From Saccostrea cucullata (Eukaryota), in contig NW_026931375.1 of the NCBI RefSeq assembly GCF_032062105.1, forward strand, positions 124,001 through 188,000: 64,000 nucleotides of DNA, given 5' to 3'. Each line of letters begins with the position of its first letter. Position 1 is the stretch's first letter. Position numbers and translations under genes: made by a program. Shown here in pieces: positions 22,120-58,496 of this stretch. Under the pieces are notes generated by a model. The model did not search any database, was not told the origin of the DNA, and saw only the letters and a list, made by a program, of their open reading frames with translations.

Positions 22120-22372
22120 CAGATAGGAGCTGATCCTTACGTCGCGGGTTCGAATCCCACAGTGGGACGTGGAAACCGGTCCTTCGGATGAGACTGTATA
22201 AACCAAGATCCCGTGTCCCAGTTGGTGCTGGCACGAAAAAGATCCCTCACTGCTCAAAGGACCTTAGTGCTGCGTATATGTCAAAATTCGCTCTTCACCT
22301 TCATTAAGCGGTTGTGTCTCCATCTGAGTGAAAAAAAAATCTCAAGAGGGACGTTAAACAACATACAAACAT
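22120..22372 (+). mobile_element. tRNA-headed SINE with Deu/Nin-type central domain (5' part of head missing)
   Basis: B-box ggttcgaatcc 22147-22157; core ggtccttcggatgagactgtataaacc; tail gggacgttaaacaacatacaaac. Confidence 0.8.
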
Positions 22373-36420: not shown

Positions 36421-37879
36421 AATTTTTGATATTTTTTCGAAGAAATACATCTATTTATGAACTACACACTTTGCAAAAATCACACTCCCATAACATCAGA
36501 TGATGAATGAATCATGTCACATATAATCCATTAAATTGCACAAAACGTTATTTTCGCTACCATATTCCCTACTCGTTTACAACTTCTTCAGTTTTTCGTT
36601 ATATATTACTTTCAAAACACAAGTTTACTGAAGTAGATAGTATTCCGTTTCTTATATCACTCTATGTTTATAAGGATTTGAATAGTTTTGCTTCATGTAA
36701 TGAAGTTTACGCATCAGTGAACATACGCCCTCTAGGGTCATAGCTTACAGGGTCAAGAAATCATTCAAGCTTCAAATACATTTCCCAAGGTATTGTGAAA
36801 ATGTTCATAAAATACGTTAACCGGAAAACCCCGGGACATTACGGCTATAGGGATCATTATGTTGAAATTAAATAAAAACCGTTATAATTAACTTTCCACA
36901 CATGGTGACAGAATTAAATATGGAAATTAGCAATACATTACGTTTTTCAGCAAAGAACAGTAACTCTTGATATTAACATTTTTGTTAATTACTCTTAAAT
37001 TATATAAAGTAAAAGAATCCGCATTTCATATTATTCTAAAAAAAAATTTGTAATATATATATTAAGTTCAAAAGAATTTCCAAATGGATTTTCTTTTGAA
37101 TTCTAGACGTGGCTTTTGGAAATGTGGATTTTGTGATTGAAACTTTATGCACGTAAAAATGTTTCAACTTAATGCACTTTTACTTTTGTAGAATGAAACT
37201 CAATTAAAATTCGAAGAAGATACAAAGAAAACTGTGGTAGGTTCATGATATTTTTTTTACTAACTATAATTGGTATAAATGTAAAGGAGTATTACTTAGC
37301 ACACCTAAAATTCGGTAACAGTAAACTTTATAATCATAAAATATAGTAATACAAACGTTTGACCAAAGCTTCACATTGCATGAGACTTGCACCATGACAA
37401 TCAGCTATCTATATTTTAAATGGGTTAATTTTCAGGAAGAACATATGGGCTTTCTGAACTCAAAAGATGGGATGATTAAAAAGAAGAGTGATAAAATGAA
37501 GAGAAAATCAAACCAAAGGCCAGATCCTGAAAGGGTTAATTTTCAGGAAGAACATATGGGCTTTCTGAATTCAAAAGATGGGATGATTAAAAAGAAGAAT
37601 GATAAAATGAAGACAAAATCAAACCAAAAGGCAGATCCTAAAGAAAATAAAGCGAGAACCAAAATGACACGTATAAGAATGGAGGAAAACACGAGGAAAA
37701 AGATATTGAAAAGGCAGGTTGAAATATCGAAAGTAGAAATAGAGAAGAGATAAAAGACAGATGGGAACACCAAGGAAAGGAGAAGACAGATATCAGAGAT
37801 AGAAGGGATAAAAGGGACAGCTGTAGAAGAACAGATGGTAAGATGCAGAAGGAAGAGAGCAGAGGACATACAGAAAGAA

Positions 37880-39125
37880 AAGCAAGAATTGCAGCAAAAG
37901 AGAGCGAAGAAGATATAGAACACAAGGAAGAGCAAGAATTGCAGTGAAAGAGAGCGGAGGAGATACAGAAGGAAGAGCAAGAATTGCAGTGAAAGAGAGC
38001 GGAGGAGATACAGAAGGAAGAGAAAGAATTGCAGTGAAAGAGAGCGGAGGAGATACAGAAGGAAGAGCAAGAATTGCAGTGAAAGAGAGCAGAGGAGATA
38101 CAGAAGGAAGAGCAAGAATTGCAGTGAAAGAGAGCAGAGGAGATACAGAAGGAAGAGCAAGAATTGCAGTGAAAGAGAGCAGAGGAGATACAGAAGGAAG
38201 AGCAAGAATTGCAGTGAAAGAGAGCGGAGGAGATACAGAAGGAAGAGCAAGAATTGCAGAAGAGAAGAGCACGAATTGCAGTGAAAGAGAGTGGAGGAGA
38301 TACAGAAGGAAGAGCAAGAATTGCAGTGAAAGAGAGCGGAGGAGATACAGAAGGAAGAGCAAGAATTGCAGCAAAAGAGAGCGGAGGAGATACAAAAGGA
38401 AGAGCAAGAATTGCAGCGAAAGAGAGCGGAGGAGATACAGAAGGAAGAGCAAGAATTGCAGCGAAAGAGAGCGGAGGAGATACAAAAGGAAGAGCAAGAA
38501 TTGCAGCGATAGAGAGCGGAGGAGATACAAAAGGAAGAGCAAGAATTGCAGCGATAGAGAGCGGAGGAGATACAAAAGGAAGAGCAAGAATTGCAGCGAA
38601 AGAGAAAGTAGGAGATACAGAAGAAAGAGCAAAAACTGCAGCGATAGAGAGCGGAGGATAAACAGAAGGAAGAGTAAGAATTGCAGCAAAAGAGAGCGGA
38701 GAAGATACAAAAGGAAGAGTAAGAATTGCAGCGAAAGAAAGCAGAGCAGATACGGAAGGAAGAGCAAGAATTGCAGCGAAAGAGAGCGGAGGAGATACAG
38801 AAGGAAGAGCAAGAATTGCAGCAAAAGACAGCAGAGGAGAAACAGATGGAAGAGCAAGAATTGAAGCAAAAGAGAACGGAGGACATACAGATGGAAGAGC
38901 AAGAATTGCAGCGAAAGAGAAGGGGGAGATTCAAAAGGAAGAGCAAGAATTGCAGCGAAAGAGAACGGAGGAGATACAGAAGGAAGAGCAAGAATTGCAG
39001 CAAAAGAGAGCGGGGGAGATACAGAAGGAAGAGCAAGAATTACAGAGCGGAGGAGATACCGAAGAAAGAGCAAGAATTGCAGTAAAAGAGAGTGGAGGAG
39101 ATATAGAAAGAAGAGCAAGAGAAGG
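37880..39125 (+). repeat. 45-bp purine-rich minisatellite, ~27 units
   Basis: Unit gaattgcag(c/t)gaaagagagcggaggagatacagaaggaagagcaa. Confidence 0.95.
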
Positions 39126-40089
39126 AATTGAACATTGAGATGGCAGAGGAGATAGAGAAGAATAAACGAGCAAAAGAAATAATGAAAGGAGAGAGGGAGG
39201 AGACAAACTTTGATATGGAAGATGACAATTTAATCCAGGGTAGACAACCTTACTGGTACAAAATCCTCTGTGGAACATCCTATTTACCCGTGAGTACATT
39301 TTTTACTATATATAATACATGTGACATATGTTATCAAAAATTTATCTCGATACAGCCCATTAGATAAACTTATGCTTTATCCACGGATAGATGCTTTATC
39401 AATAGCACTTCCGGTTTTGACACGATCCCTCGCTTCAAGATTTTATTTTATTGAAACTTTTATTTGTGAAAATTATTGCCCTTATAAAATGAATGATAAA
39501 GGGCATTAAAATCATTGAAAGCAAGAAAAATACCCGTATATGTCAAAGGAGTATCTTATTTTATCAAGGAATCTGTATTGGCTACTTGAAGACAGATGTT
39601 ACCCCCCCCCCCTTTAAATTGTTTTCGGAGAAAGTAAAGCCTAGCAGTTAAGTTGTTATTATAGGATTCCTTTAACATCTTCAATAATGTTTCCTATATT
39701 ATACTACGTATGCCTTCCTAGTAATGTAGGTGTAACTTACTATGGATCAACAATGAATCTACAAGTAGCCTAGCCTTGCCTGGCACGTTTTGTACTGCCA
39801 CCGTCCGAAGAGTTAATTTTCACGATCCCATGGTCCTTACAACTTTCAGTCAGAAGTTATTTTGATGTAAAGCTCCATTAATTGTCACATAATGTTTTCA
39901 AAGACGCATATAGCAAAAATTCTAAATTTTGATCACGATCTACTTTCTTTCGAGGCATGTCAACATCAACGGTGCTACGTCATCAAGTTATACGTCATCA
40001 GTATATTTGAATTAGCAATCATTCATGTAATTTCTCAGGGGAAGTCTCAAAGTTTTGTTAAAACGAAATTCGTATGAGATAAATCGAAC

Positions 40090-52457: not shown

Positions 52458-53372
52458 AACAAGAAATCTGTGAGCCAGTGCTCACTAGTAATACCCCCGC
52501 TCTGATGTGAATAAACTCTATCATGTCAATATACAGAAATTTAATTACGGGCAAATGCACAGAAAAATATGAAGTTGACATCAGATTCATCTCAAAATTA
52601 ATCCCACCATATGGCATGCCTCAACAGAGGGTGTACTAAAATTTCAAGCATCTGCGATGAGTAAATGCTAAGAAAACTGCGACGAAAATTTGATAAGTAT
52701 GAAACGGACAGACGCACAGACAAACAGGAAGTTGACGTCGGATTTGAACAGAAATGTATCCCACCGTATGGCATGCCTCAGAGAAGATTGTGTTAATAAT
52801 TTCAAGCATGTGCGATGAGTAGTTGCTGAGATTGATTGATTGTATACTGTTTAACGTCCCTCTCCAGGATATTTCACTGATATGGAGACGTCACCATCGC
52901 CGGTGAAGGGCTGCAAATTTAGGCCTTTGCTCGGCACTTACGGCCTTTGAGCAGGGAGGGATCTTTATCATGCCACACCTGCTGTGACACGGGGCCTCGG
53001 TTTATACGGTCTCATCCGAAGGACCGCCCCATTTAATCGCCTTTTACGACAAGCAAGGGGGTACTGAGGACCTATTCTAACCCGGATCCCCACGGGGCAG
53101 TAGTTGCTGAGAAAACTGCGTTGCTGAGAAAACTGCGGTGAAAATGTGTTATGTATGAAACGGACAGACGCACAGACAAACAGGAAGTTGACATCAAATT
53201 TCAAAAGAAATGTATCCCACCGTATGGCATGCCTCAGAGAAGATTGAGTTAAAATTTCAAGCATCTGCGATGAGTACCGGGTAGTTGCTGAGAAAACTGC
53301 GACACACGTACAGACAGACAGACACACAAGGGTAAAACAGTATACCCCCCTCTTCTTCGGAGCGGGGGTATA
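52458..53372 (+). mobile_element. HINE-type element (family C, ~158-bp monomers) carrying an inserted SINE
   Basis: 5' aacaagaaatctgtgagccagtgctcactagtaatacccccgc; monomers ...cccaccgtatggcatgcctcagagaag...; acag microsatellite; 3' hairpin tatacccccctcttcttcggagcgggggtata. Confidence 0.8.
52832..53098 (-). mobile_element. Full-length SINE with Deu/Nin-type core and a non-tRNA structured head
   Basis: 14-bp TSD agtagttgctgaga (52818-52831, 53099-53112); (caat)n tail; body homologous to 22120-22372. Confidence 0.9.
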
Positions 53373-54490
53373 ATTATTATCCCCCCGCTTGAAAAGCGGG
53401 AGGGCATATAGTGATCAGGAAGTCCGTCCGTCCGTTACGCTTTGGGGTACTCTTATCTGCAACTCCCCTTAAACCACTGAATGACTTTCACAGAATTTTT
53501 GTTACATAGTGCCATTGTGCATCTCTTATTATGCCCTCCGCTTGAAAAGCGGGAGGGTATGTAGTAATCGGTATGTCCGTCCTTCCGTCTGTACGTCCGT
53601 CCGTCTGTTACGCTTTGGGGTACCCATCTCTTATCCGCAACTCCTCTTATACCGCTGAATGAAATTTGATGAGACTTTCACATAATCGTTTTGTATAATG
53701 CCATTGTGCACCTCCTATTTTACTTTTTGAAGGGACACATATTTTGGGTTTTCCAGAGCGAAACATTGACACTGCCATTTTTTCTATAGTATTGAAGAGT
53801 ACCCATCTCTTATCCGCAACTCCTCCTATACCAATGGACAAAATTTAATGATAATTTCACACATTCTTTTTTACATGATGCTATTGTGCACCTCCTATTT
53901 ACTTTTTGATCTGACACTTATTTCGGATCTCAAAGAGCAAAAAAGGGCCTTTGTCATTATAATCATATGGGAGGCGGGAGTATCATTTAGTGAGCTCATT
54001 GCTCACTGTACCTCTAGTTTTACTTTTTGATCTGACACATATTTTTGGTTTCCATAGCAAAATATGGAATCTGTTTTTTTTCTAAATAATAAAGGGTGCC
54101 CATCTCTTATCTACAACTCCTCTTTTACCACTGAATAAAATTGAATGATATTTCACAGATTTTTTATTACATACTTCCTTTTTGCACCTTCTATTTTACT
54201 TTTTGATCGGACACATTTTGGTTTTCCAAACCAAAACATTGACACTGCCATTCTTTCTATAATATTGAAGGGTACCCATCACTTATCTGCACTCCACCTT
54301 TAACACTGAATAAACTTGAATGAAACTTTCACAGATTCTTTATTACATAATATCATTTTCACCTCCAATTTTACTTTCTGATCGGACACTTATTTCGTGT
54401 TTCCCAGAGCAAAACATGGACTTTGCCAATATATTAATATGGGAGGCGGGGGTATCATTTAGTGATCGAGCTCATGCTCAAAGTACCTCT
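53373..54490 (-). mobile_element. Cluster of family-B HINE copies (minus strand); a further fragment at ~54920-55080
   Basis: Repeated 3' hairpins cccgcttgaaaagcggg (53383, 53537, 54928), ccgt/ctgt microsatellites, 5' ends ...gtatcatttagtgagctc (53980, 54452). Confidence 0.75.
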
Positions 54491-57055: not shown

Positions 57056-58496
57056 ATGACAATTAGTTATCTTTATTTTAAATGAGTTAATTTTAAGGAA
57101 GAACATATGGGCTTTCTGACTTCAAAAGATGGGATGATTAAAAAGAAGGACGATAAAATAAAGAGAAAATCAAACCAAAGGGCATATCTTAAAGAAAATA
57201 ATCCGAGAACAAAAAGGACGAAGATAAGAATGAAGGAAAACATGAAGGAAAAAATATTGAAAAGGCAGGTTGAAAGGTTAAAGTAGAATTTAAGTACAGA
57301 AGATATTAAAGAAAGATAGGAACACCAAGGAAAGGAGAAGACAGAGAAAAAAAAAAGATAAAAAAGGAAGCTACAGAAGAACAGATGGTAAATTCTGAAA
57401 CAGGAAAGAAAACAAAAGAGAAAGAAATGGTGGCGAAAATGGCAAATAACAAAAAGAGAAGAGCAGAGAAGATACAGAAGCAAAAGCAAGAATTGCAGCG
57501 CAAGAGAGCGAAGGAGATGCAGAAGGAAGGACAAGAACTGCAGTGAAAGAGAGCGGAGGAGATACAGAAGGAAGAGCAAGAACTACCAAGAACTGCAGTT
57601 CAAGAGAGCGGAGGAGATACAGAAGAAAAAGCAAGAATTGCAGTTCAAGAGAGCGGAGGAGATACAGAAGGAAGAGTAAGAATAGCAGTGCAAGAGAGCG
57701 GAGGCAGCGAAAGAGAGCGGAGGTCGGAGGAAATACAGAAGGAAGAGCAAGAATCGCAGCGCAAGAGAGCGAAAGAGATACAGAGGGTAGAGCAAGAATT
57801 TCAGCACAAGAGAGCAGAGGAGATACAGAAGGAAGAGTAAGAATTGCAGCGAAAGAGAGCGGAAAGATACAGAAGGAAGAGCAAGAATTGCAGCGAAAGA
57901 AAGGAGGAGATAACAGAAACTGGTAACAATAATTCCAATCGAGAATTAAAAGCCAAATCTGAACTGTTGTTCGACAGATTGTTTATTTTTTTAAATCAGT
58001 AAAGGCTCTTGACACTACAATTGTATCTTATATAAAAAATAAATAATAACTTCATACCTATTAGCACACAAGCGTATTTTTGGTATAGGATATTTTTTAT
58101 ATAAGAATATTTATAAGTCCATTTTAGATAAATCGTATTATTGGTAGCGAAGTGAAGATATTTATGTGAAACATTCTTTTAGGACACAGTAACGTTTCAT
58201 TTCAGTGGAATAATCTAGAAAAAAAATGTAAAACTACACTCGATCGGTATTTGTAGTAACGGTGAATAAAAAGTTATAAAAAAAAATTACAATAAAACGC
58301 TATTATATCGTATTTTTCCACTTTTTAGATTTTAATATAGCTTTACTGTTTATAAAACTTTTTCACCTATAATGTTATGTAAAATATGTGACATATAGTC
58401 CTTTTTGTCTGCACACATGCATAACTTTTTACATGTATCATCTGAACATATACTAGAGTATTGCACAAGAATCAGGGAACGTTAATCGGTTCCTCT

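Follow-up and report, generated by a model that had tools for sequence, protein, structure and literature searches.

The closest described relatives of the element studied here are the LP-SINEs, short interspersed nuclear elements (SINEs) that, according to the available text of PMC4758252 (Matetovici 2016), carry a head of about 70 bp related to the 5' ends of the long interspersed nuclear elements (LINEs) Nimb-17_LMi, I-3_DR and RTE-9_CPB. In that text, the Saccostrea family Sgl_LP (256 bp) has body and tail in common with tRNA-Arg SINEs and an AGTATA hexamer ahead of the tail; the head was proposed as an RNA polymerase II (Pol II) promoter (LP for LINE promoter), a parallel was drawn with the 77-nt ribozyme-promoter of ingi/L1Tc, and the partner LINE was left unidentified. 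Within the open literature searched, only this paper covers the head; a SINE survey is, in its available part, confined to tRNA heads (PMC11481361). Here, 64,000 nt of the Saccostrea cucullata genome (contig NW_026931375.1, positions 124,001 to 188,000; the window, numbered from its first letter) were analyzed, in which a SINE copy with such a head lies on the minus strand. By its sequence, the window element is an LP-SINE, a type already described. What is new is that the LP head is a conserved structured RNA, apparently uncatalogued. On balance, it probably represents a functional RNA class that is uncatalogued: a small self-cleaving ribozyme of a new type, or else the first RNA by which animal retrotransposons block a nuclease. 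Such a cassette would have passed between SINEs, different LINE clades, RNA viruses and one large DNA virus, and would spare the elements their own promoter. No earlier description of the RNA fold, the partner LINE or the viral carriers was found in the open literature, subscription papers, Repbase and Dfam lying outside the search.

An earlier, sequence-only reading of the window had noted two SINE copies with a common body and tail but unrelated heads. Comparison confirmed this: the minus- and plus-strand copies agree from GGTCCTTCGGATGAGAC onward, and their heads are unrelated. The minus-strand sequence at the head agrees letter for letter with the earlier quotation, the 14-bp target-site duplication said to fix the 5' end of the minus copy is exact, and the B box claimed for the plus copy was located (Table 1); the A box of the latter was lost by 5' truncation. 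ARAGORN detected a tRNA in two of five loci of this sister family, one of them tRNA-Arg, and the family is by sequence tRNA-derived. In the LP locus ARAGORN detected no tRNA, and the LP head also lacks a B box, as expected from the claim of a non-tRNA head. The element combines a LINE-homologous head of about 70 bp with the body and tail of tRNA-headed SINEs, target-site duplications and terminal short repeats. It thus resembles the LP-SINEs in the available account of PMC4758252 in its LINE-derived head, tRNA-Arg SINE body and tail, AGTATA hexamer, target-site duplications and length (267 versus 256 bp), and its identity with Sgl_LP itself is inferred from length, hexamer and layout. The identical core motif is printed in the supplement of that paper under 'Nimb-17 homology'. 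The earlier reading had allowed that the head might prove to be an already described LINE 5' untranslated region (UTR) segment, and in part this is so, since it is the LP head of PMC4758252. The text available there treats it as a DNA promoter, with neither RNA structure nor viral carriers, whereas a fold, a partner LINE and viral occurrences are described here.

Exact matches to the 22-nt core of the head numbered 2,296 in the 1.17-Gb genome, compared with none for a reversed-sequence control. The LP head is, by this count, a young, high-copy family with at least 2,296 near-identical members. At 53036, the window copy deviates by a sporadic C>T change (T in 45 copies versus C in 2,296). As C is usual there, the hairpin drawn earlier as GTCGT/GCGAT normally reads GTCGT/GCGAC. 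At one locus (L168:557-706), two heads stand in tandem in direct orientation, 74 nt apart, the first of them degenerate; if mobilised together, they would speak against efficient self-cleavage.

The fold of the head was derived by comparison. A covariance model was built from 18 hand-picked intact representatives, with stems S2 and S3 and the core hairpin supplied and the pseudoknot left out; it realigned 33 matches, degraded ones among them, and the alignment leans toward S2 and S3. The head is predicted to form a 5' H-type pseudoknot (S1 and S2) with an AGAAUA loop, followed by a stem (S3) bearing the invariant hairpin. On the 33-sequence alignment, 81.7% of the cells of this revised structure were paired, compared with 67.4% after shuffling, and 94 cells were compensatory, compared with 38; the shuffle controls for pairing take no account of relatedness. 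Compensatory changes were observed in all six inner pairs of S2 and in two of three pairs of S1. The core hairpin is nearly invariant (three of its five pairs never vary) and hence almost without covariation. In a register-free partner-swap test with 21 representatives and 5,000 swaps, z was -8.1 (0 swaps) for S2, -2.7 (29 swaps) for S1 and -2.8 (14 swaps) for S3. On these comparative grounds S2 is firm, while S1 and S3 are moderately supported. The first U of the S2 5' strand is often unpaired and probably forms loop 1; in relatives, the 5' part of loop 3 can be expanded by as much as about 60 nt. The nested fold of the window copy was no better than that of shuffled sequences (z -0.39; 66 of 200 shuffles folded as well). 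Since folding of the single copy carries no signal, the structural evidence is purely comparative.

The earlier reading had proposed four stems to be checked for covariation. Its stem GGGGATC/GGTCCTC corresponds to S2 and was borne out. The closing stem GCCCCGT/ATGGGGC was rejected, with 51% of cells paired and a partner-swap z of 0.0, as was the crossing stem GGGT/ACCC (z -0.8), the supported crossing stem being formed by the 5' CCCG with the loop CGGG; the hairpin, being near-invariant, gave almost no covariation. The broader claim of a structured, pseudoknotted, 5'-terminal SINE head is thus supported comparatively, though with a different crossing stem.

Rfam yielded no match for the window, for the surroundings of the head or, across 10 homologous loci, for the motif itself (one match with E=3.1 lay off the motif), and with the models of the hammerhead, twister, pistol, hatchet, twister-sister and hairpin ribozymes, no hit with E up to 5-10 fell on the motif. 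The earlier statement that the head fits no catalogued ribozyme agrees with this. Fits to hepatitis delta virus (HDV), twister and pistol ribozymes by eye were rejected because the topology is wrong. The HDV topology is a nested double pseudoknot with P1, P1.1, P2, P3, P4 and the J4/2 cytosine. An HDV-like ribozyme was rejected since covariation yields an S1/S2 H-type knot and a separate hairpin and Rfam gave no match. The HDV-like ribozymes of R2, RTE and ingi/L1Tc (Pr77) resemble the head in being small pseudoknotted cassettes that form the very 5' terminus of LINEs and of non-autonomous elements derived from them, across unrelated elements; the head differs from them in its single knot and in a first nucleotide that is neither conserved nor consistently paired. 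With one base missing, the core at 53033-53051 may resemble the conserved 3' region of small-subunit rRNA, which could well be chance.

For the 5' ends, 90 loci were scored, yielding 81 distinct copies (63 with target-site duplication, 12 without, 6 truncated); the loci were chosen via the head sequence, so that full-length copies are favoured, and three rows have one flank in common. Of the 63 flanked copies, 40 started precisely 5 nt ahead of the G that marks the S1/S2 junction and 53 within 1 nt of this position, the clustering of ends that had been named earlier as a check. The same offset was found in five of seven partner LINEs of the same genome (one at 6 nt, one damaged) and, among 23 copies examined from families of other animals, in five of the seven with a called duplication. 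The first two letters of 60 SINE copies varied (GC 26, AT 10, AC 7, TT 7, others 10) and were partly inherited with body variants (11:2 versus 2:7, Fisher p=0.007). A pyrimidine start was observed in 14 of these 60 copies and a C start in five of seven LINEs, and no nucleotide constraint was apparent at positions -1, +1 and +2. Because the offset is fixed and the first letters vary, the boundary is predicted to be set by the distance from the fold, i.e., by a ruler rather than a sequence signal.

The partner LINE was reached through an assembly of a bacterial symbiont. A core match on L329 lies about 570 nt ahead of a 449-aa open reading frame (ORF1), followed by a 1,236-aa ORF2 with APE, RT and RNase H domains; this full-length animal-type LINE (L329:2900-8900, G004:C4) is most likely host contamination. 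Comparable animal-type stretches were observed near the ends of contigs of metagenome-assembled genomes (L327, L328, L330). A search of the Saccostrea genome with the L329 RT returned a family at about 70% RT identity, and of 10 LINE loci fetched, all seven of this family and none of three distant ones carried the head. The 5' end of an intact LINE (L332) is 83% identical to nt 2-73 of the SINE head, and the 3' end of another (L333) matches the last 25 nt of the SINE in 24 positions. Since the same LINE family has the head at its 5' end and the SINE tail at its 3' end, it is the donor of the head and likely also the mobiliser of the SINE. The partner LINE of this genome has ORF1 and an ORF2 with APE, RT and RNase H, the I-group/Nimb arrangement, and was classified as Nimb-like by domain layout and the available part of PMC4758252. 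An AAGAG loop variant, tried as a route to the LINE, yielded none in the 30 of 40 loci fetched; the LINE was reached through RT homology. In the LINE 3' UTRs (L331-L337), a stretch resembling the SINE body (GGACGTTAAA, CCCCGTGTC, AAAAGATC), unscored by BLAST, lies about 200 nt from the end; the body domain may also be LINE-related.

The exact 19-nt core was found in at least 122 metagenome stretches, the matches being heads of several unrelated short-element families with differing bodies, some with loop insertions of at most about 60 nt. Short elements composed of head, second conserved block and trinucleotide tail (L327:3580-3720 and L330) appear as further independent recruitments of the head; their second block is presumably an RTE-like 5' UTR. 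In 596 Gb of prokaryote genomes, nine core matches were obtained compared with 8.7 expected by uniform chance, and the four contexts inspected were all animal-type DNA.

Among viral contigs, nine exact-core matches were found, seven with the whole cassette, and one further carrier (L460) was found via a loop variant; L065 and L069, with the core alone, were rejected as chance matches. The RNA-virus-like carriers encode a tetravirus-type capsid (L092/L119), a nodavirus-type capsid (L115), RdRP_4/RdRP_1 (L102), RdRP_3 (L121) and an S-domain coat (L460), or lack a Pfam match (L082, with a second cassette copy in tandem); L098 is a 212-kb DNA virus in which the cassette is intergenic, 123 nt ahead of a long ORF. 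RNA-virus Pfam domains lie upstream of the cassette in five of the six distinct RNA-virus-like contigs. Each of the six has the cassette within its 3' UTR, read on the coding strand and following the last stop codon by 4, 10, 24, 75, 101 or 200 nt; from the end of the core, 14-119 nt remain to the contig end. Relaxed viral patterns returned mostly chance matches: 7 of 64 were real in one, no new carrier appeared among 28 in another, and none among the 120 matches listed for a further one after model filtering. The presence of the cassette in RNA-virus 3' UTRs implies that it acts as RNA and not solely as a DNA promoter.

It is possible rather than probable, but tentatively favoured here, that the head fixes the RNA 5' end by blocking a 5'-to-3' exoribonuclease, as exoribonuclease-resistant RNAs (xrRNAs) do. 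The first 73 bases of the SINE come from an I-group (Nimb-like) LINE, of which this genome retains intact copies. Transcription by host Pol II would read through a SINE copy, the transcript would be decapped or cut upstream, and XRN1/2 would trim it until reaching the knot, stalling a couple of bases before S1. The product would be a unit-length, uncapped, protected RNA, which the LINE protein would copy from the shared tail; the head would stand in for the tRNA promoter, and no promoter would be required. In viruses, the 3' UTR would by the same block give rise to a small subgenomic RNA. The hairpin core may dock on the AGAAUA loop and brace the 5' end, its loop presumably being T-loop-like (UANRA-GG). 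The block is favoured since one activity would cover both settings: at the 5' ends of retroelements it would act as a ruler independent of sequence, and early in viral 3' UTRs its position would do no harm. The latter position and the free first two nucleotides fit a block somewhat better than cleavage.

The xrRNAs of the flavivirus classes, the dianthovirus/luteovirus class and coremin are likewise compact pseudoknotted RNAs early in viral 3' UTRs, sometimes in tandem, coremin being a knot plus hairpin. The head differs in that it has no sequence or Rfam match to them and no three-way junction, its core is highly invariant, it occurs mainly at retrotransposon 5' ends, and its resistance is putative. 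Another short, sequence-conserved structured RNA element, s2m, is scattered over unrelated viral 3' UTRs; its sequence and fold differ from those of the head, which has no Rfam match and also defines retrotransposon 5' ends. In its available text, PMC8374639 lists 3'-UTR location, tandem copies, a required pseudoknot and a 15-16-nt ring encircling the 5' end as xrRNA features, and that of PMC10321173 describes the coremin xrRNA as a putative pseudoknot with a downstream hairpin. In the head, the 5'-terminal strand is paired in S1, with moderate support, and the coding-strand placement in RNA-virus UTRs holds for all six carriers. No xrRNA at retrotransposon 5' ends was reported in the literature searched, and PMC8374639, in its available part, asks whether eukaryotic genomes contain xrRNAs. 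The head described here is a 70-nt candidate for which a comparative structure is available; it exists in thousands of natural copies, has an intact partner LINE and recurs independently in viruses.

Several points weigh against a nuclease block. The ring around the 5' end cannot be shown from sequence. xrRNAs are usually less conserved than the near-invariant 19-nt core, which suits catalysis or protein binding equally. With the core so close to the viral contig ends, only a short RNA would be protected, and the motif might instead serve as a 3'-terminal signal. The G preceding CCCC, which is the commonest start (26 of 60), may derive from a cap. In one raw fragmented RNA-seq run of a relative (X24; about 6% of the run read, 3,986 reads placed), no pile-up of molecule ends was observed at the 5' boundary and 580 reads crossed it, most reads coming from copies within host transcripts. 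Finally, a plain H-type frameshift pseudoknot fails to stall Xrn1, according to the available part of PMC10321173.

That the head is a new self-cleaving ribozyme, as the earlier reading had suggested, cutting just 5' of itself and freeing LINE or SINE from read-through transcripts in the slot of the HDV-like ribozymes, appears rather doubtful. The sharp, structure-anchored 5' ends, often with a pyrimidine, and the near-invariant core with AGAATA suit it, but positions -1, +1 and +2 are unconstrained, HDV topology is absent and Rfam holds no match. Bacteria and phages commonly harbour the known small ribozymes, so that the scarcity of core matches in prokaryote genomes counts against this reading. 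The same 5'-terminal cassette on unrelated LINE clades again recalls the ingi/L1Tc parallel (PMC4758252), and 5' ribozymes in six LINE clades give strong precedent in the available text of PMC5786205. Linear RNA viruses do carry ribozymes, yet, as far as the available part of PMC13725137 goes, mostly in 5' UTRs and exceptionally in 3' UTRs, and in all six RNA-virus-like carriers, cleavage 5' of the cassette would separate the coding strand from its 3' end. In the X24 reads, depth by strand was 140 versus 138 at the tail edge and 194 versus 719 at the 5' edge of the head. Cleavage could produce this skew, but so could the one locus that supplies 200 reads, the polarity of the library or reverse transcriptase stalling at the fold. 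A binding platform for translation factors, the ribosome or the element's own polymerase, aiding translation or copying of uncapped or non-polyadenylated RNA with the 5' end set separately, e.g., by an internal promoter, is unlikely. The sequence-invariant hairpin suits sequence-specific recognition, and the cassette is near-terminal in viral genomes, upstream of ORF1 in the LINE and ahead of a long ORF in L098. However, a platform alone fails to explain why the offset is fixed while the first bases are free; moreover, the SINE does not code for protein, and the translation strategies of the viral carriers are very different.

The published proposal taken by itself, a DNA-level internal Pol II promoter with an incidental fold, is quite improbable. 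It accounts for the 5'-terminal position in LINEs and the replacement of the tRNA promoter, but not for compensatory changes in S2 and S1 or for a cassette in RNA-virus 3' UTRs, where a DNA promoter cannot act; nor is there a conserved initiator, given the pyrimidine starts in 14 of 60 SINE copies and most LINEs. A dual role as promoter and RNA is conceivable. It is scarcely credible that the viruses took up their copies passively from the plentiful retroelement RNA of the host, which would make them uninformative on function. Animal genomes and RNA do contain the motif in great abundance and the viral carriers are few (about eight contigs), yet the viral stems have diverged while still pairing, the core is intact, and without exception the cassette lies in a UTR, on the coding strand. 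The 2016 work left the origin of the defined 5' ends of LP-SINEs and their LINEs as a question, for which a candidate is now offered. If nuclease block or self-cleavage were true, a new RNA family would join retrotransposons and RNA viruses; if neither, the data would point to an unknown partner binding a strongly conserved RNA hairpin.

Table 1. Coordinates of the LP-SINE, its predicted RNA features and the tRNA-headed sister copy in the window.
Feature	Position	Strand	Basis
LP-SINE copy, 267 bp: LINE-derived head, body common with tRNA-headed SINEs, (CAAT)n tail	52832..53098	-	sequence; published Sgl_LP description
LP head: structured RNA cassette (predicted pseudoknot and hairpin domain)	53026..53098	-	model score 77 bits, sole match within window
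S1 5' strand CCCG, partner 53081-53084	53093..53096	-	88.5% of cells paired though helix absent from model; z -2.7
S2 5' strand, partner 53065-53072	53085..53092	-	z -8.1
S1 3' strand CGGG, closes H-type pseudoknot	53081..53084	-	comparative pairing
Conserved AGAATA ending loop 3	53073..53078	-	AGAAT in 18/18 representatives, which were picked for having it
S2 3' strand	53065..53072	-	covariation, partner swap
S3 5' strand, partner 53027-53030; register differs between families, moderate support	53056..53059	-	61.7% paired in fixed register; z -2.8
Near-invariant 19-nt hairpin core; C>T at 53036 in window copy	53033..53051	-	sequence conservation
S3 3' strand GGGG	53027..53030	-	covariation, partner swap
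Tail, 24/25 nt as in L333 LINE 3' end; holds AGTATA hexamer noted for Sgl_LP	52832..52856	-	
5' target-site duplication, 14 bp, exact	53099..53112	-	
3' target-site duplication, 14 bp, exact	52818..52831	-	
tRNA-headed sister SINE, 5'-truncated, same body and tail, B box 22147-22157	22125..22372	+	

The insertion site of the SINE (52600-53400, minus strand) is itself another repeat, with a short hairpin-like end, a GTCT microsatellite and tandem units of about 160 bp, presumably akin to Helentron-associated non-autonomous elements. Numerous dispersed units of about 170-180 bp from one repeat family, in direct and inverted orientation, surround the SINE between 46526 and 55079. A long array of about 30 copies of a 45-bp unit was observed at 37785-39160, with a second, related block at 57081-57945; as its period is divisible by three, the array may be a coding repeat.
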